Below, piece after piece: positions 3,824 to 38,132 of a stretch of 38,132 bases of DNA. The first letter of the stretch is position 1; the number at the start of each line of letters is the position of its first letter. The stretch lies in IMG/VR virus record IMGVR_UViG_3300027908_000014, positions 1 to 38,132 of that record; one strand, 5' to 3'. The notes beneath the pieces are model-generated. The model searched no databases. It saw nothing but the letters and a program-made list of their open reading frames with translations, and was not told where the DNA came from. A program made the translations under genes and the position numbers. The stretch is from a virus.

Positions 3824-4612
3824 TCAGGTGGCGGCCGAGGGGGCGGTGCCGTTCTCCATGAAGTCGGGGGCGGTGTAGAGGTTGTAGACCAGCTTGCCGG
3901 TGGCCTGGCTGGTGCTGATGACGCACACACCGCCGTCAGCGGTGATGTAGGCCGTCTCCATCGCCTCGGTTTTGGGGTTCCAGACTCGGGTAATCATGTC
4001 GTCGGTGATTCCTTCCGGTAGGGGTGGGGGAACAACGGGTGGTGGGTCGGTGAGGCCGAAGAGGTCGTCGTACTGGACCCCGGTGCCATGCCAGGACGAC
4101 TCATCGCACAGGCCCGGGATGCCGGGGATGTCGGCGCTGGGGGTGAACTGCCACATGACGCCCCAACCGGGATATCCCTGGTTGTAGGCGGCGCACCAGG
4201 TGGTACTCGGCACCTGGGCACGGATGCTCCCGAGCGTGGACGCGGAGCCGTAGGTGCACCGGGCGGTCGGGTCCAGGTCGAGTGCGGAGAGGAACGAGCG
4301 CGCCCACGCCGTGTTGGTCGACGTCTCGATGTCGAGGACGCGAGCCCATCGAACGCCAGCGGTAGCCACGAAAAACTCGGCCTCGTCGCCAGCGTCGGTG
4401 AAGCTGGCGAAGTGATACGCCAACACGTCGATCTCGGCTTCCTGCGCCCCGTCCATGTCGCGTTCGTACCAGGGGTTCACGTAGGTGGTCCCCTCGGTGG
4501 CCTTGATGATCGCCGTGGTCACCCCGGCCGCCCGAACCAGCCCCCAGTTGATCGGGTCGCCGCCAGGGTGGTTATTGCTCGACAGGTCGATGATGCGTCC
4601 GATGGTTGTCAT
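3824..4612 (-). CDS. Endolysin, glycoside hydrolase family 25 (muramidase) with an unassigned C-terminal domain
   Basis: GH25-type N-terminus (IIDLSSNNHPGGDPINWGLVRAAGVTTAIIKATEGTTYVNPWY...LDIE). A Pro-rich linker precedes an ~70-aa C-terminal domain. Confidence 0.8.
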   Translation of the reverse strand: MTTIGRIIDLSSNNHPGGDPINWGLVRAAGVTTAIIKATEGTTYVNPWYERDMDGAQEAEIDVLAYHFASFTDAGDEAEFFVATAGVRWARVLDIETSTNTAWARSFLSALDLDPTARCTYGSASTLGSIRAQVPSTTWCAAYNQGYPGWGVMWQFTPSADIPGIPGLCDESSWHGTGVQYDDLFGLTDPPPVVPPPLPEGITDDMITRVWNPKTEAMETAYITADGGVCVISTSQATGKLVYNLYTAPDFMENGTAPSAAT

Positions 4613-4965
4613 CAGAAGAACGTTACCGTGGTATCGGTCACGGCGAGGGTGGCCGAGTACAGGTCGATGTCAGCGGGCGGCGAGGCCGGGAAGCTGACAA
4701 GGGACGGGGCGGTCAGGGCGAGGGGGGTCCCGGTGTCGCCCGAAATGCCCTTGAGCGTCATGGCGACAGCGTTGCCCGCGGCCGGCTGGATCAGGACACC
4801 GACCGACCAGGAGGGCACGGCGACCAGGTTGTCCCCCTCCGCCAGCACCACGTTGAGCACCTGGACCAGGTTGCTGATCGTCGGGGCGATGGTCACGGTC
4901 GGGATGGACAAGGTGCCCTGGGGCAGTTCGTTGAGCACCGCTTGGATCGTCACTCGGCCAGCCAT
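4612..4965 (-). CDS. Hypothetical virion-associated protein (117 aa)
   Basis: Track ORF with SD GGAGGA 8 nt before the ATG and a TGATG overlap with the lysin start. It lies between fibre and lysis genes. Confidence 0.6.
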   Translation of the reverse strand: MAGRVTIQAVLNELPQGTLSIPTVTIAPTISNLVQVLNVVLAEGDNLVAVPSWSVGVLIQPAAGNAVAMTLKGISGDTGTPLALTAPSLVSFPASPPADIDLYSATLAVTDTTVTFF

Positions 4966-14045: not shown

Positions 14046-14885
14046 TCACCCTCCCTGTCCGAAGTTGGCCCCGAGGCCGCCGATCAATGACGCCTGGGAA
14101 CCGAGCGCCGAGAGCTGCTGAGCTCCTTCCCCCTGGGCGCTAGTGATGGCGTTGAGGAACTGTTCGGGCTGGCCTGAGACGCCGAGCTGCTGCATCCCGA
14201 AACCGAGTTGGGCCGCCGCCTGCTGGGCGGTCAGCCCCTGGCTCTTGGCCGCCAAGCCCAGTTGGGCCTCTTGGCTCGCTGTCTGCTGCTGCTGGCCCGC
14301 GTAGCCGACCTCTTCGGACTGTTGGCCGAGGGCGGCCAACTGCTGGGCACGGAAGATGTCAGCCTTCTGCCACCCGTACTCGGACGCCTGGGTCTGTTGG
14401 GCCTGGCCGTGGCCGGTGGTGTTGAGGGTGCCCGCGCCCGCGCCACTGCTCGACATCTGCTCCAGCGTGTTGGTGTTTTGAAGGGCCGCTTCTTGGAGCT
14501 GCTCGGGGTACTGGGTGGACGACACCCCGTAGGACTGTTGCTCAATGGCCTGCTGGGCCGCGTTGGTGGCCGCCGATTCGCCCAGGGCACCGGCCTGCAG
14601 GCCCAGCCCCTGCTCGCCCAGGAGGGCACCGGCCATGTCGAATCCGGCCGAGTTGGTCAGTTCGGCCCCCTGGACCGCCATGCCCGCCGAGTCGAGGCCG
14701 AGCTGCTGGGAGCCAAGGGCCGACGACAGGCCGTAGCCCGCGATGGTGGCGTCGTAGCCACCGGCCAGATCCCCAGCCACTTGGTTCTGCCACGACGGGC
14801 TGGCCTGGAGGCCCGCTGCCGCGGTGGTCCCCGGCGCGACCGGTTGCTGCAAGCTGCCTGCGCTGCCGCCCCCGACCTGTGGCAT
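14046..14885 (-). CDS. Gln/Ala/Gly-rich virion protein, candidate ejection/internal protein (279 aa)
   Basis: Start taken at ATG 14885 (MPQVGGGSAG), in a TAATG overlap with the upstream stop. Confidence 0.55.
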   Translation of the reverse strand: MPQVGGGSAGSLQQPVAPGTTAAAGLQASPSWQNQVAGDLAGGYDATIAGYGLSSALGSQQLGLDSAGMAVQGAELTNSAGFDMAGALLGEQGLGLQAGALGESAATNAAQQAIEQQSYGVSSTQYPEQLQEAALQNTNTLEQMSSSGAGAGTLNTTGHGQAQQTQASEYGWQKADIFRAQQLAALGQQSEEVGYAGQQQQTASQEAQLGLAAKSQGLTAQQAAAQLGFGMQQLGVSGQPEQFLNAITSAQGEGAQQLSALGSQASLIGGLGANFGQGG

Positions 14886-15634
14886 TACCAGCCGTCCGAA
14901 CTGTCCGTATACGCGTAGACGGGCCACTGGGGATTGCCCGAAGTGAACTGGTCCCCTTGGTCAGTAAAGCGACTCGTCTTGTTGAACATGTTGATGAGCT
15001 GCATCGAGTACATGCCCATCGCCTCCTGCCACAGCGGGTCGCGGTCCCGGCGCTTGGCCTTGGCCACGGCGTACTCGTAGCAGATGTCCTCATACCCCGG
15101 GGTCAGGTCGAGCAGGTCGGTGTCGTTGACCGCCACCTGGGCCTGGCGGTAGTAGTAGAGGGTCAGGGTGCCGGTGGCTGCGATGACCGGGTAGGTGGCG
15201 AAGTACCACTGGCCGCCGGGGACACCGGTGTCATTCCAGAGGTAGAACGCCCGAGGGTAGGCGGCGGGCAGTTGGTGCAGGATGCCCCATATCTCGTCCA
15301 TCGTCTTGATGCCGTGGTACTCAAGGTTGTAGGTCTGATCCGAGTTGTCGATCGAATAATCAAGCCGGTGCACGCCGAGGAAGTCAGCCGGGACCATGTA
15401 GCTCTGCTGGCCCGCCACGGCGGGGATGGACGCCTGCATCCAGAGGCACTGGGCCTGCCGGCTGATGTCCTGCGCCCCCTGGTTGAGCCAGTTGTTGAGC
15501 ATGCTGTCGGTCCAAAACGCCGCCGCGTCCTCGTCAATGAGACTCCGCACCTCAGTGCGGGCGGCGGCGAGGGTGGTGGTCACGGTGTCATCGTACCCCT
15601 CTAGGCCCCGACGATCCGGTAGTTGATCGTGCAC
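14885..15634 (-). CDS. Virion structural protein, possible head-tail adaptor (249 aa; start uncertain)
   Basis: Track ORF. The call rests on position in the structural block and on a segment (FWTDSMLNNWLNQGAQDISRQ) that reminds me of adaptor proteins, which I cannot verify. No SD at GTG 15634. Confidence 0.45.
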   Translation of the reverse strand: MHDQLPDRRGLEGYDDTVTTTLAAARTEVRSLIDEDAAAFWTDSMLNNWLNQGAQDISRQAQCLWMQASIPAVAGQQSYMVPADFLGVHRLDYSIDNSDQTYNLEYHGIKTMDEIWGILHQLPAAYPRAFYLWNDTGVPGGQWYFATYPVIAATGTLTLYYYRQAQVAVNDTDLLDLTPGYEDICYEYAVAKAKRRDRDPLWQEAMGMYSMQLINMFNKTSRFTDQGDQFTSGNPQWPVYAYTDSSDGW

Positions 15635-23094: not shown

Positions 23095-23253
23095 CTAGAG
23101 GTCGGGGTTGTCCCGGACTTCTGGAATCTTGCCCATCACCATCGGGTCAGCACCCCATGCGGTCGTTTCGGTCTGACCTTGCCGCATGATGTTGGCCTTG
23201 CCCTTGGGCTGGGGGCCGTAGTTCGGGCCTACCTGGTTTCCACCATCTGCCAT
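23095..23253 (-). CDS. Small ORF (52 aa, MADGGNQVGPNYGPQPKGKANIMRQGQTETTAWGADPMVMGKIPEVRDNPDL)
   Basis: Not in the track (<60 aa). AGGAGG lies 7 nt before the ATG. The stop TAG is 2 nt before the next ATG. Confidence 0.5.
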   Translation of the reverse strand: MADGGNQVGPNYGPQPKGKANIMRQGQTETTAWGADPMVMGKIPEVRDNPDL

Positions 23254-23278: not shown

Positions 23279-23308
23279 ATAGTACACGCGGTACACGATC
23301 ATTGCACG
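23279..23308 (-). promoter_or_regulatory. Candidate promoter of the capsid-assembly block, overlapped by copy R6 of the 19-bp motif
   Basis: On the minus strand: -35 GTGCAA, 17 bp, -10 TACTAT, then an AGGAGG-led ORF. Nt 23290..23308 read CGTGCAATGATCGTGTACC, 17/19 identical to the copy at 32633..32651. Confidence 0.4.
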
Positions 23309-23315
23309 CGGACGC

Positions 23316-23357
23316 GGAAATGCCCGCCCTACGCAACAAACCCGGGCGGCCATTTCC
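23316..23357 (-). other. 14-bp stem hairpin (one mismatch) between two transcription blocks; possible attenuator or processing site
   Basis: ggaaatgcccgccc (23316..23329) pairs with gggcggccatttcc (23344..23357), with a 14-nt loop. There is no U-tract, so it is not a canonical intrinsic terminator. Confidence 0.4.
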
Positions 23358-30071: not shown

Positions 30072-30208
30072 CGGCTGAACTTCTTGAAGTCATCGCGCCA
30101 GTGTGACCCGTCGCTCTCGGGAGCGGAATGGTCACGGAACGCGAAGTACATGAAGGCCCAGTACGCCGCGCCGATGCCGCCGACCCACAGGATCCGTAGC
30201 CACATCAT
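30068..30208 (-). CDS. Mini membrane ORF (46 aa, MMWLRILWVGGIGAAYWAFMYFAF...)
   Basis: C-terminal part of track ORF 30068..30520. ATGA overlaps at both ends. Confidence 0.5.
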   Translation of the reverse strand: MMWLRILWVGGIGAAYWAFMYFAFRDHSAPESDGSHWRDDFKKFSR

Positions 30209-30420
30209 CTGCACAACTTCGCGAATCGCTTGGTCACGTTCTGGCGCGACGTGGCGGTGCCGCGGGCAATCAGATCCCAGGAGCACCCAGCCTCTCGGGC
30301 CTCGACCACTCGGGTGTCGAGCGCCTCCTTGCAGGAGTTGACCGCGGCCACAGCTTCGGCAATGTACGCGATCCACTCGTCGCCATTGCCGCTTTCGTCG
30401 GTGACCGCCACCGCTGTCAC
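30205..30420 (-). CDS. Helix-turn-helix DNA-binding protein (71 aa)
   Basis: HTH-like C-terminus (GCSWDLIARGTATSRQNVTKRFAKL). GTG start in a GTGA overlap with the stop of 30417..30818. Confidence 0.55.
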   Translation of the reverse strand: MTAVAVTDESGNGDEWIAYIAEAVAAVNSCKEALDTRVVEAREAGCSWDLIARGTATSRQNVTKRFAKLCR

Positions 30421-32016: not shown

Positions 32017-32035
32017 GTCAAGCCAAGGGTACCAG

Positions 32036-32065
32036 TTGACATTTCGGCCTGGCGGCGCGCATCAT
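32036..32065 (+). promoter_or_regulatory. Candidate rightward promoter (-35 TTGACA, 18 bp, -10 CATCAT), back to back with a leftward TTGACA at 32016..32021
   Basis: Hexamers read directly. There is no credible ORF downstream for ~900 nt. Confidence 0.3.
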
Positions 32066-32071
32066 GACGTC

Positions 32072-32335
32072 GAGGGGCTGCGGTCCCGACAGAACACTTA
32101 TTTCTCCATTGCGAACCCGGGTAGCCAACGAGCCCCGGAGGCCGGGACCCCTGGACACAGGGTTTGCGATCGCGCACCTAAGACGTGGGGTGCGAGGGCT
32201 GAACCAACGTCGAATGTACCGACGACTGGTGCCTGACAGCGGTGATGATGCGGTCTGTGCAACTCGAAACGGACGAGGAGCATGGGGGGAAGTGTCTCTA
32301 GAAGCTAACGCTTGCGTTAGCGCTTGTCCTTTAGA
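32072..32335 (+). ncRNA. Candidate non-coding transcript (~250 nt) from the promoter-like signal to a hairpin plus U-rich tail
   Basis: No ORF with genome-typical GC3. Ends at stem GCUAACG-CUUG-CGUUAGC (32304..32321) followed by GCUUGUCCUUUAGAUU. Internal pairings include GGTCCCG/CGGGACC and CCCTG-GACA-CAGGG. Unverified. Confidence 0.25.
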
Positions 32336-32400
32336 TTCAAAGGCTGCTACCGCACAATCCGCTTCGCTAGGATTGCTTGGTGTCTAAAACATTGTTAGCG

Positions 32401-32428
32401 ATTTTTTAAAAGTTCACCGCTAAAAAAT
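32401..32428. other. AT-rich hairpin / possible DNA-unwinding element
   Basis: atttttta (32401..32408) pairs with taaaaaat (32421..32428), with a 12-nt loop. This is the most AT-rich spot in the window. A CATAAT -10 on the minus strand lies at 32430..32435. Confidence 0.35.
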
Positions 32429-32598
32429 GATTATGAGCGGGGGATAGCGTGTGTGGATACCTCCCCTTCTCTAGTCCAGCCGGTGGGCCAAACGGTCTGC
32501 ATCGTCCAATGATCGTGTATCGGGCTGTGTGCAAGGGTCGTACACAGGAACTGCCCGGCCCCCCTAGGCACGTGTGACGATCTCGGAGGGAGGGAGTG

Positions 32599-32616
32599 GG
32601 AGGAGGAGGAGGAGGA
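32599..32616 (+). repeat. (GGA)6 microsatellite within a 33-nt polypurine tract (32585..32617)
   Basis: Read directly: ggagggagggagtgggaggaggaggaggaggag. Confidence 0.9.
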
Positions 32617-32878
32617 GCAGCATGAGCAGCAGCGTGCAAGGATCGTGTACTGAACTGCAATGCATTACATGTAATACGTAACGAGTCATTGAGTGCGTGC
32701 AAGCTAGCTTCACCACCTGACCCTCCAGCCAGCCTGTGGATAGCTTGTGCAAGGGTCATGCACAACCAGCATCAGGGGAGGGGGCGGGGTCAGTAGACCT
32801 CGGTGGCCGTCCACAGGGCGACACCGGTTTGGCCTTTCATCGTCCAGCGATCTGGCCGCGCATGCTACGCAACAAAGG

Positions 32879-32908
32879 TTGACACTGTGGTGCAGGGTGT
32901 GCAAGGAT
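32879..32908 (+). promoter_or_regulatory. Candidate rightward promoter of the plus-strand operon (-35 TTGACA, 18 bp including TGc, -10 AAGGAT), overlapped by motif copy 32898-32916
   Basis: Perfect -35 at 32879..32884 and an extended -10-like TGcAAGGAT at 32900..32908. The first plus-strand ORF starts ~55 nt downstream. Confidence 0.4.
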
Positions 32909-32968
32909 CGTAGACAGCGGCCGACGAGTGATCGGCTGCAGACTTGAGGGAGAGTGGGGGTGAAGGGT

Positions 32969-33127
32969 ATGAGTGCGGAGCGGGATGCGTATCAGGCAAG
33001 TGTCGACTTCAACAGTCTGATGGACTCGTTGGACTACGACGGGAAGGTCGTTTGGGTCAAAGCGGACATTGCACGGATGGATGCCGAACTTGATAGCGAC
33101 CGGTGCACAGCACACAGCCACGACTAG
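32969..33127 (+). CDS. Small ORF (52 aa, MSAERDAYQASVDFNSLMDSLDYDGKVVWVKADIARMDAELDSDRCTAHSHD)
   Basis: Not in the track. A G-rich SD-like stretch precedes the ATG. GC3 is about 69% and the composition is protein-like. Confidence 0.45.
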   Translation: MSAERDAYQASVDFNSLMDSLDYDGKVVWVKADIARMDAELDSDRCTAHSHD

Positions 33128-33186
33128 TCGAAACGCCGTTAGGCGTCGTGGTCAACTAGGCCACCTGATGAGACTTGGGAGCAGAC

Positions 33187-33390
33187 ATGGACGCTAAGCA
33201 CAGAGCAGTCGTGACCTGTCAATACTGCCGCCAGCCGCTGGACGATTCCGATGGCGCTTCATGGCCGCATTGCCCGGCGTGCGATCTGATTATCCGTACC
33301 GCCGCCCTTCGCTTGATCGAGCTGGCCGACGATGACGACACTGGCACGCAGAGGTTGGCCATCGCCTTGGGCGAACTGCTGGTGCCATGA
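33187..33390 (+). CDS. Zn-ribbon protein (67 aa)
   Basis: CxxC...CxxC (CQYCRQ...HCPACD). GGGAGC lies 5 nt before ATG 33187. The track ORF starts at TTG 33175. Confidence 0.55.
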   Translation: MDAKHRAVVTCQYCRQPLDDSDGASWPHCPACDLIIRTAALRLIELADDDDTGTQRLAIALGELLVP

Positions 33391-33686
33391 GCTCAATCCT
33401 CTGCGCTCGGTGCGATGACGCACCACGTGTCCCCGGTGGCGTCTTTTGCCCACGCTGTGAGGCGGAGGTACGTCACGGTGGCGAATCGGTGGCACGGTTG
33501 GCCGTCCCTCCAGTTCTAGCCCCTCCTGCGAAGCCACAGGCCGTCTCCCGAGTGGGTCGACCACCCTCGGAGTGTTGGTTTTGCACTGGCGGCACGCCAC
33601 CGAGTGATCCACCACCACCGATGTGTGACGCCTGCGATGACCTCATGTGCGACTTCTTGGCGTGGCTGCGCGCCTTGCGGTCGTGA
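33387..33686 (+). CDS. Cys-rich (multiple CxxC) protein (99 aa)
   Basis: CARCDD...CPRCE and CWFC...CDACDDLMC. ATGA overlap with the upstream stop. Confidence 0.55.
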   Translation: MSSILCARCDDAPRVPGGVFCPRCEAEVRHGGESVARLAVPPVLAPPAKPQAVSRVGRPPSECWFCTGGTPPSDPPPPMCDACDDLMCDFLAWLRALRS

Positions 33687-33892
33687 AGGGGTTCCGCCGG
33701 GAAGTCGTCTACGGTCGCCAGGAGATTGCCGAGATGGTGGGGGTCAAACTGGGGACCGTCCATTCGTGGTCACAACGAGGGGTGTCGTTCCCATTCCCGG
33801 CCCCGGACCTGACCGTCTCGGGGCTGCCAGCGTGGTACGCCTCGACCGTCGAGGAATGGGCGCTACTGGCCGGACGCGAGCTGGCCCGTTAG
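33683..33892 (+). CDS. Helix-turn-helix (MerR/excisionase-like) DNA-binding protein (69 aa)
   Basis: YGRQEIAEMVGVKLGTVHSWSQRG...P.W. GTG start in a GTGA overlap. The 3' end overlaps the rusA 3' end by 30 nt (convergent). Confidence 0.6.
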   Translation: MKGFRREVVYGRQEIAEMVGVKLGTVHSWSQRGVSFPFPAPDLTVSGLPAWYASTVEEWALLAGRELAR

Positions 33893-34564: not shown

Positions 34565-34800
34565 GACTGCCACGGCTTCTGATGCACGACGATGAACCAC
34601 CAGACACCGGTAGCGATATTCGGCCAGCCCACCCAGTCATGGGCACCGAGCCTCGCCCCACCGAGCCAGATCATGAAAACCCCAGCGCAGACCAGCACCG
34701 GCTCGCGGAGATGACCCAAGAACCACAGCTCCCGTAGCGTGCCCCACCAAGACCGGTCCGCCTCACAGCGTGCGACAAACTCAGATTTCGTCGGCTTCAC
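34561..34800 (-). CDS. Small membrane protein (79 aa)
   Basis: GTG 34800 overlaps the C5-MTase stop (GTGA) just after GGGGAGGGG. Hydrophobic spans VLVCAGVFMIWLGGA and IATGVWWFIVV. The track N-terminus (34561..35091) overlaps the MTase and is rejected. Confidence 0.55.
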   Translation of the reverse strand: MKPTKSEFVARCEADRSWWGTLRELWFLGHLREPVLVCAGVFMIWLGGARLGAHDWVGWPNIATGVWWFIVVHQKPWQS

Positions 34801-35555
34801 AACCCCTCCCCCTTGTCGGCTCCGGTGCTCTGAGGGGCCAGGTGGGCGAGGTGGGCGAGGAGTTGGGCGCCTATGAATTCTGTGTAGGCGGGAGGGATGG
34901 CCTGAGTCATTTCGTCGCGGGTCATCCATTCCACCCCCATCACACCGGCCGCGGCCTTGGTGGATGCTCCAGCCGTGTGCCCAGCAGGATCGGGCAATAC
35001 ACCAGTGACGCCGGCAGATGCGTGCGAATAACGGTTCCCAAGCATCCGACCGTGGCCTATGACCTCTCGATGCCTTTGGTGGGGATGGCACATGACCAGG
35101 AAGTTCGCCTCAAAGAGCCGGTGTCGATACATGCGAAGCCCGAAGTCCAACCCGCAGAGCATGAACGGTTCGACCAGCGGAGCGCCCATCACGTTTTCGA
35201 TGACATAAGTGAGGCCGGTTTGGATCAAGAGAGCACGCACTGGCTCAATCAGCAGCGGGTATTCCCTATCCCTTAGCCAGGGCAGGTGCCGCATCCGGCT
35301 ATACCCCTGGCATGGTGGACTGGCGTGAACCGCATCGAAGTGACCGAGGCACGGGCCTAATCGACCACGCTCATGCCAACAACCTTTGCGAACGTCCTGC
35401 ACCATCGCCGTGGCATCGGCCTGGTGGAACTCAAACGGGTAGTGCGGCTGGGGCTCGATGTCCACGCCCACCACGTCGAAGCCCGCACGGTGATAGCCCA
35501 TTGCCGCCCCGCCGGCGCCCGAAAATAAATCAAGGAGTCTCGGTCGGGGGCTCAC
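34797..35555 (-). CDS. DNA (cytosine-5) methyltransferase, orphan (252 aa)
   Basis: Motif I DLFSGAGG, motif IV ASPPCQGYS, motif VI YVIENV. Start taken at GTG 35555 (GTGA overlap with the 24-aa mini-ORF); the track start is 35561. Confidence 0.9.
   Translation of the reverse strand: MSPRPRLLDLFSGAGGAAMGYHRAGFDVVGVDIEPQPHYPFEFHQADATAMVQDVRKGCWHERGRLGPCLGHFDAVHASPPCQGYSRMRHLPWLRDREYPLLIEPVRALLIQTGLTYVIENVMGAPLVEPFMLCGLDFGLRMYRHRLFEANFLVMCHPHQRHREVIGHGRMLGNRYSHASAGVTGVLPDPAGHTAGASTKAAAGVMGVEWMTRDEMTQAIPPAYTEFIGAQLLAHLAHLAPQSTGADKGEGL
34802..34838 (-). repeat. Junction element copy A (37 nt, identical to 35625..35661)
   Basis: acccctcccccttgtcggctccggtgctctgaggggc. It encodes the last residues PQSTGADKGEG of the C5-MTase and carries the SD for the next ORF. 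Confidence 0.9.
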
Positions 35556-35626
35556 GGACACACTTCCCCCCGCTCGAGGAGGACTTCGGTGTCGAAGCGG
35601 TCGTCGTCGAAGAACGGCTCTGTCAC
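35552..35626 (-). CDS. Relay mini-ORF (24 aa, VTEPFFDDDRFDTEVLLERGEVCP)
   Basis: GTGA overlaps at both ends bridge the two methyltransferase genes. GC3 is about 83%. Confidence 0.45.
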   Translation of the reverse strand: MTEPFFDDDRFDTEVLLERGEVCP

Positions 35627-36402
35627 CCCTCCCCCTTGTCGGCTCCGGTGCTCTGAGGGGCGGTCAGGAGGACGCCTTGTGCGAGACGACCAACTGCGGT
35701 TTCGCAATACGCCTCGTTGGCCTCAATCCCGATTGCCCTGCGGCCCAACTCTCGAGCACCGACCAGCGTTGAACCGCTGCCCATGAAGGGGTCAAACACG
35801 GTCCATCCCGGCGCCGTTGAATAGCGAATGAGTGGGTCAAGGATGCCCAGTGGCTTCTCGGTCGGGTGGTTGCTTGAGCCATGACACGACCGGACCTCAA
35901 TGACGGTGGTTGCGAGTCGTGGGCCTCCGTCGACCGTCCGGTATGTTCCACCGCTGGCAATCTCACCCATGTGTGCTGGCCGTCGTTTCGTGCGCTTCAC
36001 TGAACGAGCGGTGGCATCCATCGTGACCGGAACGTCCAGCCTCAGCCCACGCCATTCGCCTCGGTAGAAGTGGACTGCCTGCTCATGGATACGGCGGAAT
36101 CGGTCGGCGTGAAAGCTCGATCCGTTGTGCTTTTTCCACACAACGTCCTGGCCGAACTTCCAATCTGAGAACTCGGCGGCGTGGCCCATGAACATTTTGA
36201 GCGACCCAAAACACCACATTTCATCGAACGGGATCAGACTCGGCCAACCGTCAACCCAGCGGTCCCACCCGAGACTCGTTTGCCCATAGGGCGGGTCAGT
36301 AACGGTGACAACTGGGGCGTGATCGAACGTCAGCGTAGGAATGATCTCGCGCATGTCCCCGTGATAGATCGTGATGCCGTCCTGTTCGTAATACGGCCTC
36401 AC
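35623..36402 (-). CDS. DNA N6-adenine / N4-cytosine methyltransferase (DPPY type), orphan (259 aa)
   Basis: Motif IV TDPPYG near the N-terminus and motif I VFDPFMGSGSTLVGA near the C-terminus (beta-class order). GTG start in a GTGA overlap after GAAGGAG. Confidence 0.9.
   Translation of the reverse strand: MRPYYEQDGITIYHGDMREIIPTLTFDHAPVVTVTDPPYGQTSLGWDRWVDGWPSLIPFDEMWCFGSLKMFMGHAAEFSDWKFGQDVVWKKHNGSSFHADRFRRIHEQAVHFYRGEWRGLRLDVPVTMDATARSVKRTKRRPAHMGEIASGGTYRTVDGGPRLATTVIEVRSCHGSSNHPTEKPLGILDPLIRYSTAPGWTVFDPFMGSGSTLVGARELGRRAIGIEANEAYCETAVGRLAQGVLLTAPQSTGADKGEG
35625..35661 (-). repeat. Junction element copy B (37 nt, identical to 34802..34838)
   Basis: Read directly. The bases flanking both copies differ on each side. 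Confidence 0.9.
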
Positions 36403-37133: not shown

Positions 37134-37188
37134 CGAAACTCCGATCCAGTCGTTCGAGCTGAATCGACTTGCATTCGTGCAGGCTCAC
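37126..37188 (-). CDS. Possible relay mini-ORF (20 aa, VSLHECKSIQLERLDRSFDA)
   Basis: GTG overlaps the RNA ligase stop (GTGA). Its stop overlaps the next ATG (ATGCCTGA). GC3 is only ~65%, so the coding status is doubtful. Confidence 0.25.
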   Translation of the reverse strand: MSLHECKSIQLERLDRSFDA

Positions 37189-37218
37189 TTCACCCCTCCC
37201 TTGTCGGAGGCTTCGGGG
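37184..37218 (-). repeat. Junction element copy C (35 nt, 34/35 identical to 37864..37898)
   Basis: ctcacttcacccctcccttgtcggaggcttcgggg. It encodes PEASDKGGVK-stop of the RNA ligase. Confidence 0.9.
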
Positions 37219-37868
37219 GTGGGGGGGAAGTCACGCCCCTTGACTTTGACGATGATGCGTTCACCCTTGCGGTTGAACAGCGGGACGGTAGGCGTGCCGA
37301 CAATCCCTTCTATGCGTACGTTCTCCCAGGCCGATTGGACACGCTTGCAGCGGACCTTGGCGATGGCTTCGTTGAGTGTGAATGTGCCGATCACGGGAAC
37401 GGTGCGGAGTCCCAACTTTTCGGCCACGTCCGCCACATCTTCGGGTTGGAGCCACCAGTCCCCCACTCGCACGTCGAACAGGATGAAGTCGCACCCTTCG
37501 GGGTTGTAGTTGCCGGCGCCCTTTTGGACCTTGCGCCCGTAGCCTTCGCCGTAGAGCGTGGCCGATTGCGAATCGGGGAACGCTGCCTCCAGGTCGCTGG
37601 CCGTGAAGATGTCGGCCAGGCGGTCGTAAAGGAACGTCGGCATCTGGGCGTTGTCGGTGCGCCCACCGAACTGCACGACCGGGGCATTCTGGTCAGTGTG
37701 ATACAGGTACACCCGTACGTTGGTCCCGTCGACCTTCTCGGTCCAGCGCCAGTCCAACTCGGCCAGATAGCCGAACTCGGGACAGGCCCAGTCACCGTCG
37801 ATCAACTGGCCCTTCTCGTCGCGCTTGAACACGCTATTGATCTTCTGGTACTCGCGCATCTCACTCAC
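37185..37868 (-). CDS. RNA ligase family protein (nucleotidyltransferase domain only, 227 aa)
   Basis: Motif I lysine context WTEKVDGTNVRV, as in Pab1020/DraRnl-type RNA ligases. Later EGYG and KVK-type motifs. GTG start in a GTGA overlap 6 nt after GGAGG. Confidence 0.65.
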   Translation of the reverse strand: MSEMREYQKINSVFKRDEKGQLIDGDWACPEFGYLAELDWRWTEKVDGTNVRVYLYHTDQNAPVVQFGGRTDNAQMPTFLYDRLADIFTASDLEAAFPDSQSATLYGEGYGRKVQKGAGNYNPEGCDFILFDVRVGDWWLQPEDVADVAEKLGLRTVPVIGTFTLNEAIAKVRCKRVQSAWENVRIEGIVGTPTVPLFNRKGERIIVKVKGRDFPPTPEASDKGGVK

Positions 37869-37898
37869 TTCACCCCTCCCTTGTCGGATGCTTCGGGG
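37864..37898 (-). repeat. Junction element copy D (35 nt)
   Basis: ctcacttcacccctcccttgtcggatgcttcgggg. It encodes PEASDKGGVK-stop of the junction-spanning ORF. Confidence 0.9.
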
Positions 37899-38132
37899 AG
37901 GGGGCGTCCGTCCTGGTCGATTCCGGAGGCAGCGAGGATGGCGACGGCCAGCGGGCGCTCGTCGTCAAACGACTCACCACATCGAGTGCAGTAGGAACCC
38001 AGTGGGATCATGAGGTCATATCGGGCATGGCCGAGGAGCTTGCAGCGTGCCCGGCGTATCCACCACGGCGCACCACCATCAGCGATGGGTCGGGACCAGG
38101 GGGCACGTCGCCAATAGCTGAATGGCTTAGTC
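37865..38132 (-). CDS. 3' part of the junction-spanning hypothetical ORF (see 1..227)
   Basis: Manual translation ...WWIRRARCKLLGHARYDLMIPLGSYCTRCGESFDDERPLAVAILAASGIDQDGRPLPEASDKGGVK-stop. Open to the window end. Confidence 0.5.
   Translation of the reverse strand, partial: TKPFSYWRRAPWSRPIADGGAPWWIRRARCKLLGHARYDLMIPLGSYCTRCGESFDDERPLAVAILAASGIDQDGRPLPEASDKGGVK
38034..38132. repeat. Terminal identity, copy 2 (same 99-mer as 1..99)
   Basis: Read directly. Confidence 0.95.

Follow-up and report, generated by a model that had tools for sequence, protein, structure and literature searches.

Candidate operator sites of a phage regulator in the control region and at the head-gene promoter of an uncultured soil podophage

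Introduction

The Cro/CI operators of lambdoid phages (OR1-3, OL1-3; P22, 434) are partly symmetric sites of ~17 bp, three of them abutting, at the early promoters of a divergent control region. In the KorB-O_B regulon of plasmid RK2, a system of the ParB family, one protein controls several separated promoters. Cluster A mycobacteriophages carry about 20-30 stoperators of 13 bp, dispersed in short intergenic gaps and bound by a monomeric two-domain repressor of the temperate phage (PMC9283540, PMC6550527).

Here we describe seven two-armed sites in the viral genome IMGVR_UViG_3300027908_000014 of the IMG/VR database, which was analysed over its whole length (38,132 nt, positions 1 to 38,132 of the record; hereafter the window). 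The window is a complete ~38 kb soil podophage genome without a cultured relative. Six sites lie in a control region between divergent genes and the seventh lies upstream of the head-gene module. Judged from sequence comparison, the motif repeat is real, and its copies are most likely sites controlling an early promoter cluster and the head-gene promoter. We consider it rather probable that they are operators of a phage regulator, which would probably act as a repressor. The logic itself is a familiar phage-operator device; what is new is the phage family, which was previously undescribed.

Results

Motif copies in the control region

The initial annotation of the window had listed six same-orientation copies of a 19-bp, partly dyad-symmetric motif in a gene-free region of ~0.95 kb. 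All six sequences were recovered at their positions and are given here by their 17-bp cores.

32504..32520, plus strand: weak copy GTCCAATGATCGTGTAT, overlapping a block partly conserved in relatives
32529..32545, plus strand: candidate operator O1, GTGCAAGGGTCGTACAC, which fills the dyad slot of a cassette shared by the phage family, 29 nt before the conserved -10 hexamer
32634..32650, plus strand: candidate operator O2, GTGCAAGGATCGTGTAC, past the conserved promoter and its purine tract, with a centre-to-centre distance of 105 bp to O1
32697..32713, plus strand: candidate operator O3, GTGCAAGCTAGCTTCAC, with both arms retained and the centre swapped for the palindrome AAGCTAGCTT
32747..32763, plus strand: candidate operator O4, GTGCAAGGGTCATGCAC, the sole perfectly symmetric copy, after the second TGTGGATA (32735-32742) and before a G tract at 32774-32790
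32899..32915, plus strand: candidate operator O5, GTGCAAGGATCGTAGAC, flanked by TTGACA (32879-32884) on one side and, on the other, by the Shine-Dalgarno-like G tract that belongs to the first rightward open reading frame (ORF; ATG 32969)

The arms of the sites are two-fold symmetric. The perfect dyad TTGTGCA-N7-TGCACAA was confirmed at 32745-32765, as was the palindrome ATTACATGTAAT at 32664-32675. The copy at 32696 had been taken for a left half only, which was an error: O3 retains both arms (GTGCA-N7-TTCAC, 32697-32713), and the centre alone differs. The copy at 32503 is weak, with a position weight matrix (PWM) score of 14.3 compared with 29-33 for the four strong copies, and a seventh strong copy on the minus strand (23291-23307) had been overlooked. 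A degenerate relative of the 32503 copy occurs at 32838-32852. The region is indeed free of recognisable genes: no ORF in 32017-32953 shows raised third-position GC, and gene callers run on identical contigs called nothing from 32017 to 33186 of the window. The irregular spacing of the copies was also borne out, with centre-to-centre distances of 25, 105, 63, 50 and 152 bp (2.4, 10.0, 6.0, 4.8 and 14.5 helical turns).

In a formal scan against shuffled background, whose failure the initial annotation had named beforehand as refuting its reading, the motif was enriched. The core 11-mer GTGCAAGGRTC occurs exactly four times in 38,132 bp (32529, 32634, 32747 and 32899), always on the plus strand and with no exact match elsewhere. 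The 19-mer consensus with up to 3 mismatches gave 3 matches (0.00 expected from 100 shuffles), and the arms alone, searched as GTGCA-N7-TNNAC, gave 8 matches at 7 sites against 0.96 expected, a number that none of 100 shuffles reached. The clustering of six of the seven sites inside 420 bp was not reproduced in any of 200,000 random placements. Conservation among the copies is limited to 17-21 bp and the flanks are unrelated, indicating that selection acts on the site itself.

The copies could instead be RNA hairpins, with a stem of 5-7 bp and a 7-nt loop AAGGRUC, serving processing, stability or protein binding. The strand carrying the copies is in each case the one expected to be transcribed, on which several arm mismatches turn into G-U pairs, and the loop-like centre is the best conserved part. 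However, the pairing register shifts from UGUGUGC/GUACACA in O1 to UUGUGCA/UGCACAA in O4, a C at arm position 2 is uncompensated in two copies, and O5 has two broken pairs. Moreover, O1 and the head copy lie upstream of the predicted transcription starts, and no Rfam match was obtained at E<=1. We therefore regard a role as RNA hairpins as very improbable.

Several other candidates were rejected. The GATC in the site centre is not an unusual feature, as the genome holds 246 GATC. A host CRP-type site (TGTG-N8-CACA) does not fit the spacing here, which is N11. A packaging (pac/cos) site is unlikely: the putative gene of the small terminase is 3.6 kb away, and one copy is at the head promoter. 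A motif scan of IMG/VR returned 42 single matches and no multi-copy locus, as chance would give.

A conserved cassette with an interchangeable dyad

A non-coding cassette of ~190 bp, which includes the weak copy and O1, aligns in seven otherwise divergent phages: the window and the relatives L046, L063, L064, L067, L085 and L087.

Cassette: window 32440-32630; L046 2880-3068; L063 3360-3548; L064 5070-5257
Cassette, continued: L085 1620-1812; L087 5960-6155; L067 4925-5117 (the cassette spans are listed as minus strand)
32451..32492, plus strand: upstream cassette blocks, consisting of the DnaA-box-like GTGTGGATAC (32451-32460), a C tract and GGGCCAAA (32485-32492)
32572..32580, plus strand: extended -10-like block TGTGACGAT, the family-conserved TGnGAyGAT; candidate rightward promoter with a predicted start at ~32586
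32583..32620, plus strand: purine tract GGAGGGAGGGAG, family-conserved and carrying a GGA-repeat extension here; probably the 5' leader of the rightward transcript

The order of elements is an AT-rich tract (~32390-32430 in the window), GTGTGGATAC, the C tract, GGGCCAAA, ~35 nt, the dyad, a GC-rich stretch, TGnGAyGAT and the purine tract. The distance from GGGCCAAA to the purine tract is 108-110 nt in the three phages measured. Relatives carry the extended -10 block as TGCGATGAT, TGCGACGAT or TGGGATTAT. The purine tract starts 5-8 nt past this block; its GGA-expanded form in the window is GGAGGAGGAGGAGGAGGAG, and an exact 20-mer within it, CAGAGGGAGGGAGGGAGCCT, is common to L046 and L063. From this arrangement we infer that TGnGAyGAT is an extended -10 element and that the purine tract begins the rightward transcript. 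The rightward promoter proposed in the initial annotation (32879-32908) was not called by a consensus scan, and the family-conserved block at 32572-32580 is the better supported candidate. The scan did call a leftward promoter, TCCACA-16-CATAAT. This was discarded: its -10 is not conserved in relatives, and the conserved GTGGAT block is thus not explained as its -35.

The dyad slot between GGGCCAAA and the extended -10 block is filled in six of the seven phages with a sequence that varies from phage to phage. In the window, O1 (GTGCA-N7-TRNAC) stands exactly in this slot; at the slot of L087, no clear dyad was found.

Dyad slot of L046: GGTGTCA-N7-TGACACC
Dyad slot of L063: GTTAGC-N5-GCTAAC
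Dyad slot of L085: GTCAG-GGATG-CTGAC
Dyad slot of L067: CTGTCAG-ACATG-CTGACAG
Dyad slot of L064: GTTAG-CGTCC-CTGAC

The slots of L046, L063, L067 and L085 hold perfect inverted repeats of 5-7 bp. GTCAG-N5-CTGAC occurs 15 times in five relatives, compared with once in 82 other loci. The control gap accounts for 11 of the 15, which are found on either side of the conserved promoter (one in L063 overlaps the -10 block); two more precede the head module (L064 14849, L085 14902), and the remaining two are at other places (L067 3388, L085 711). The window PWM found no matches in the relatives' genomes, indicating that the motif is phage-specific. Since a phage's own dyad is found both at the control gap and at the head module, strongly in the window, L064 and L085, the window motif appears as a specificity variant of a family-wide operator system, amplified to six control-region copies. 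The earlier proposal that the copies bind a phage-encoded dimeric protein is supported in part by these palindromes of other sequence and by the two-fold arms of the window sites.

Partial duplication of the cassette seems to account for some of the extra copies. The second TGTGGATA (32735), O4 and a G tract follow one another as in an apparent partial duplicate, and a CATCGTCCA..GATC block (32838), TTGACA, O5 and a G tract form an apparent second one.

Other features of the cassette and its surroundings were recorded. The ATG at 32623 opens a 19-codon micro-ORF, MSSSVQGSCTELQCITCNT, which runs through O2 after the GGA-expanded purine tract (window 32583-32682). The AT-rich segment 32290-32440 contains TTAGCG/CGCTAA inverted repeats, one of which is the hairpin GCTAACGC-TT-GCGTTAGC at 32304-32321, terminator-like in the scan; GTTAGC arms also form the L063 dyad. 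The C tract (32460-32471) is complementary to the purine tract (32583-32597), and RNAalifold predicted an 11-pair helix kept in 4/4 sequences (alignment A2, columns 22-33 with 151-163). If transcription starts at the purine tract, the two tracts are not in one RNA.

A seventh copy at the head-module promoter

The minus-strand copy occupies a short gap ahead of the head module.

23291..23307, minus strand: candidate head-module operator GTGCAATGATCGTGTAC, immediately past a terminator-like hairpin; TACTAT (23279-23284) follows after 6 nt, and the next gene starts at 23253
23322..23350, minus strand: terminator-like hairpin, then ATTTCC; a hairpin at the same position is conserved in relatives

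Its extended form, GCGTGCAATGATCGTGTACCG (23289-23309), has a PWM score of 22.4. Read along the minus strand, the stop of a small basic-protein ORF is followed by the GC-rich hairpin with ATTTCC, GCGTCC, GTGCAATGATCGTGTAC, 6 nt and TACTAT. Past TACTAT come a Shine-Dalgarno sequence and the start codon (ATG 23253) of a 52-aa gene, whose conservation in relatives is 69-81%; the scaffold and capsid genes come next. Relatives show a terminator hairpin, GCGTCA, ~25-30 nt, TAnnnT, CCGCG, a Shine-Dalgarno sequence and ATG. At the head module, three phages (the window, L064 and L085) have a strong copy of their own dyad right behind the conserved terminator and before the conserved TAnnnT -10. When the sequences preceding the purine tract and the head module were aligned locally, the phage's own dyad was recovered in both, with 18/20 matching positions in the window and 16/17 in L064 (p<0.004 each); the resemblance was weaker in L046 (13/16, p ~0.10) and L063 (12/14, p ~0.07). 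The 16-mer of L064 is present in three copies (0.17 expected). The -35 position, 18 nt before TAnnnT, is taken by the right arm (CTGACA or ATGACA) in L064, L085 and L046 and by the left arm GTGCA in the window. In L063, a 15-nt direct repeat, CCGCGGTTGCGTGCA (14627-14641 and 15119-15133), flanks an HNH endonuclease gene segment just upstream of the head module and may be the footprint of a mobile HNH insertion.

The head copy bears on the possibility that the motif is itself a phage-specific promoter element. The control region would then hold tandem early promoters for host RNA polymerase, like T7 A1-A3, with TGCAAGGAT as the extended -10, and one more promoter would serve the head genes. The copies all point toward downstream genes (plus strand in the control region, minus strand at 23291-23307), the spacings of ~105-150 bp resemble those of tandem early promoters, three copies are followed by G-rich leaders, and TG-n-AAGGAT/AAGGGT/AATGAT inside the motif fits TGn plus nAnnnT. 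On the other hand, the distance to better -10 candidates varies from 29 nt (GACGAT, O1) to 6 nt (TACTAT, head copy), and the relatives' slot holds directionless perfect palindromes with a conserved -10 block ~30 nt downstream. A phage RNA polymerase or sigma factor was not found among the ORFs searched, which gave only a sub-threshold Sigma70_r4 match. We judge this explanation improbable.

The head copy also bears on the main competing explanation, in which the cassette is the phage replication origin and the motif represents iterons of an origin-binding protein. The initial annotation had offered origin iterons as one of its readings. The direct copies share one orientation and lie beside an AT-rich segment. 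The TGTGGATA octamer, present in the DnaA-box-like GTGTGGATAC, is confined to the control region: its only two occurrences in the genome (32452-32459 and 32735-32742) are both on the plus strand, the first inside the block conserved in the seven phages. The strongest local G excess on the plus strand is found here (GC skew +0.157), and purine tracts follow three copies. Furthermore, the cassette combines C-rich and G-rich tracts in inverted orientation with a promoter and a purine-rich transcript, and priming might proceed by transcription through an R-loop, as in the ColE1, T7 and T4 origins. The ORFs searched contained no recognisable polymerase, primase, helicase or replication initiator, and the phage may rely on host replication proteins. 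Nevertheless, the strong recurrence of the motif behind a terminator at the head-gene promoter in the window, L064 and L085 is a transcriptional context, and spacings of 25-152 bp without phasing are unlike those of classical iterons. The TGTGGATA boxes match the DnaA box at 8/9 positions and DnaA-like boxes generally at 7-8/9, but their excess is marginal genome-wide (reached in 7/100 shuffles), and no initiator gene adjoins the array. These points weaken the origin reading, which we consider unlikely even though it is the strongest of the competitors. A narrower combination, in which the cassette is a transcription-primed (R-loop type) origin and the operator protein gates both origin firing and head-gene expression, is more doubtful still; if it were true, replication licensing and the early-late switch would be coupled through the operator array.

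Candidate binding proteins

Two helix-turn-helix (HTH) proteins had been named as possible binders.

33647..33892, plus strand: gene of the 81-aa small HTH protein, last gene of the rightward operon, with weak Cro/AlpA/Cox/HTH_17 similarity
30205..30420, minus strand: gene of a 71-aa HTH protein (phrog_686), the second candidate binder, with homologues in L063, L064 and L065

An HTH domain homologous to that of the 81-aa protein, C-terminal in each case, is encoded one to four genes downstream of the cassette in the window, L046, L063, L064, L067 and L085; five of the six cassette-carrying relatives thus have such a homologue just downstream. The putative recognition helices are as follows.

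Window, 81 aa: HSWSQR
L046, 171 aa: HQRRHR
L063, 166 aa: HQWRRR
L067, ORF at 4207-4917: HQLKSR
L064, 328 aa, ParB_N fusion: WQSRKR
L085, 307 aa, ParB_N fusion: WQRKRR

The helix of the five GTCAG phages follows H/W-Q-x-(R/K)-x-R, and the window, the sole phage with a GTGCA operator, departs from it with H-S-W-S-Q-R. Profile comparison of the HTH domain gave weak matches to Cro (5w8y, 3bd1), an AlpA-family regulator (8c3t) and P2 Cox (4lhf), and Pfam gave weak matches to HTH_17, YdaS, Phage_Cox and P22_Cro. A homologue search with the 81-aa HTH protein found only itself. Of the two proteins, the 81-aa one most likely binds the operators, as a dimer, judging from the position of its gene and from a helix that differs where the operator differs.

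The 81-aa protein keeps the N-terminal RLLG..RLA..G.RR and the C-terminal HTH of its L046 (1988-2503) and L063 (2606-3106) homologues and lacks the middle part of ~80-90 aa present in these 166-171 aa proteins.

In L064 and L085, the homologous HTH domain ends a ParB_N protein encoded next to the cassette. Such proteins raise the possibility of a centromere-like or ParB/KorB-type array, acting in partition or in long-range silencing by a clamp dependent on cytidine triphosphate. The operators of L064 and L085 are 15-bp palindromes near and far from promoters, like KorB O_B sites. However, the window protein has 81 residues and no ParB_N, so that at most the relatives are concerned; no ParA partner or plasmid-type maintenance genes were found among the ORFs searched, and ParB_N, being widespread in phage proteins, is weak evidence for partition. 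We consider this explanation very improbable.

Proposed circuit and points against it

In the circuit that we propose, the two-armed sites GTGCA-N7-TRNAC with the AAGGRTCG centre would be bound by a sequence-specific phage regulator. The conserved rightward promoter (32572-32580) would be bracketed by O1 upstream and O2 downstream, O4 and O5 would serve two partial duplicates of the promoter module further right, and the head copy would overlie the -35/spacer of the promoter that precedes the scaffold and capsid genes. Transcribed early and rightward from the conserved promoter, and probably also from the two partial duplicates, the operon would yield the small HTH protein, which would bind the array and shut down its own operon; through the seventh site, it would also govern the timing of head-gene expression. 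Because the regulator gene lies inside the operon of these promoters, the simplest such circuit would be Cro-like. Transcription is predicted to start near 32586, 32779, 32951 and 23272. The sites would lie at ~-50 and ~+55 (conserved promoter), ~-32 to -16 (O4 module) and -35 to -19 (head promoter), positions that speak for repression, perhaps aided by looping of distant sites. At the head promoter, where the relatives' site is centred near -39, activation may occur. As for the genetic switch suggested in the initial annotation, its lysogeny sense finds no support, with no integrase or CI-type repressor among the ORFs searched.

Several observations weigh against this circuit. The spacing of sites lacks helical phasing in the window and relatives alike. 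The centre AAGGRTCG is more conserved than the right arm and all copies keep a single orientation, which is unusual for a simple symmetric dimer site and would be compatible as well with a directional element or with binding of a second factor. The predicted centre of the head site is ~-27 in the window compared with ~-39 in relatives. The predicted promoters and start sites are all based on consensus, and the consensus promoter scan called neither the conserved extended -10 nor the promoter at 32879-32908. With regard to the binder, co-variation of helix and operator extends over six phages only, and all matches of the 81-aa protein to known regulators are below curated thresholds. AlphaFold2 single-sequence models of the two HTH proteins reached pLDDT 51 and 62, too poor for a fold search. 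The recognition region of the 71-aa protein (30205-30420) likewise differs somewhat between the window and the homologues, which leaves this protein as a second candidate.

Genome organisation and relatives

The window ends in an exact 99-bp repeat (1-99 = 38034-38132), most likely because a circular or circularly permuted genome was assembled, complete at ~38.0 kb. Its GC content is ~65%. Nearly all genes are on the minus strand; the only plus-strand genes are four small ones at 32969-33892, the last of which encodes the HTH protein. From 32016 downwards, the minus strand encodes small unknown genes, the 71-aa HTH protein, the large terminase (TerL) and a P22/SU10-type portal, followed by scaffold and capsid, a 1460-aa protein, an endolysin and RecE/RecT. 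Across the contig ends, the order continues with an RNA ligase, two methyltransferases and RusA. Pfam and PHROG scans of the ORFs searched recognised no integrase, CI-type repressor or S24. This 38 kb phage, without recognised replication genes or integrase, still encodes RecE/RecT, RusA, an RNA ligase and two DNA methyltransferases.

Gene junctions on the minus strand carry repeats of the form ...CCGACAAGGG(A/G)GAGGGGTGA (34797-34860, 35623-35685, 37185-37230 and 37865-37900). These combine a strong Shine-Dalgarno sequence with a stop/start overlap, and neighbouring proteins thereby acquire identical C-terminal tails (..ADKGEG, ..SDKGGVK). An arm match, GTGCAGGCTCACTTCAC, at 37177-37193 (plus strand), in the 51-bp gap after the RNA ligase gene and inside a junction repeat, is probably due to chance (about one expected).

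A nucleotide search of 50,697 phage records with the control region and with 24 kb gave no match, and the best cultured match of TerL has 31% identity. An exact-protein look-up showed the identical genome (100%) in four soil assemblies; as it found identical copies alone, it offered no informative variation. About 300 relatives were recognised by TerL; the nearest distinct ones have ~72% TerL identity and come from a family whose contigs measure 37-39.5 kb. A scan of Joint Genome Institute (JGI) metagenomes with TerL returned distant or short contigs only, a search of IMG/VR with the 243-aa flanking protein returned no relatives, and generic k-mer family searches were too noisy in high-GC DNA to use. 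L066 and L067 fall in Acidobacteriota bins of metagenome-assembled genomes (MAGs; Acidobacteriaceae/Terriglobales), and L068 and L069 fall in Acidimicrobiaceae MAG bins. These binned relatives have TerL identities of 49-68%, and no integration junction was seen. The bins give a weak hint at the host phylum (Acidobacteriota, Actinomycetota).

Discussion

For this uncultured family of high-GC soil podophages of ~38 kb, the analysis yields a regulatory map that can be tested. It consists of a conserved promoter cassette, a swappable operator (GTCAG-N5-CTGAC or GTGCA-N7-TRNAC), a candidate HTH protein and another promoter, at the head module, that would be under the same control. The operator and recognition-helix variants form a natural specificity series for studies of protein-DNA recognition and could supply orthogonal repressor parts for high-GC hosts.

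The lambda origin and plasmid iterons also consist of 17-19 bp repeats with internal dyad symmetry, in the same orientation and near an AT-rich tract. The window differs from them in its extra copy at a structural-gene promoter and in its spacing: orientation is uniform, but regular, helically phased intervals were not found, nor was an adjoining initiator (Rep/O-like) gene among the ORFs searched. The p4 sites in the central control region of phi29 are like the array in belonging to a lytic podophage, in placing sites for a small regulator between divergent operons and in coordinating early shut-off with late-gene expression. The site architecture differs, however, and the head (late) promoter of the window is 9 kb away rather than in the same region; the likeness is one of layout.

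P2 Cox and 186 Apl are winged-HTH proteins of 80-90 aa, to which the window protein has weak profile similarity, and they bind same-orientation repeats between divergent promoters. Their boxes are 9-10 bp long at about one-turn spacing and the proteins double as excisionases, whereas the window sites are 17-bp dyads 25-152 bp apart, and no integrase/attP context was found among the ORFs searched. Stoperators resemble the window sites in being asymmetric, oriented by transcription, present at an early promoter and elsewhere, and divergent in specificity among related phages. The orientation of the window copies is likewise tied to transcription, the control copies lying on the plus strand before plus-strand genes and the head copy on the minus strand before minus-strand genes. 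In place of dozens of dispersed sites, the PWM scan found seven two-armed ones, of which six cluster within 420 bp.

The KorB-O_B regulon shares part of this plan. The relatives' ParB_N protein carries a homologous HTH, the relatives' palindromes of ~15 bp lie just upstream of a -35 (predicted centre ~-39 at the head promoter) and at a distance, the layout of the window is analogous, and one protein would control several separated promoters. In contrast to KorB, the window protein has no ParB_N, which among the candidate binders is present only in L064 and L085; its HTH is C-terminal and Cro/AlpA-like rather than a canonical ParB HTH, and neither a KorA partner nor a partition function is evident.

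Lambdoid operators are matched by seven partly symmetric sites of one consensus (GTGCA-N7-TRNAC, one of them perfectly symmetric) at predicted early promoters of a divergent control region, and by divergence of operator and recognition helix among related phages, which is the logic of heteroimmunity. A small HTH protein is encoded in the operon that it would control. The gene position of the 81-aa protein fits a Cro-like gene, and its HTH matches (Cro, YdaS, HTH_17, Cox) are sub-threshold. Overlap with core promoters concerns predicted promoters only: the head site would lie on the -35/spacer of TACTAT and O1 would be centred near -50, and the scan called neither promoter. Unlike in lambdoid phages, no divergent CI-type repressor gene, integrase or lysogeny module was recognised among the ORFs searched, the control-region sites extend over ~400 bp at intervals of 25-152 bp rather than abutting in threes, and the window has an extra head-promoter site, a conserved centre and a single orientation. 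By analogy, the array would thus work functionally like lambdoid Cro/CI operators, with a KorB-like spread over separated promoters.

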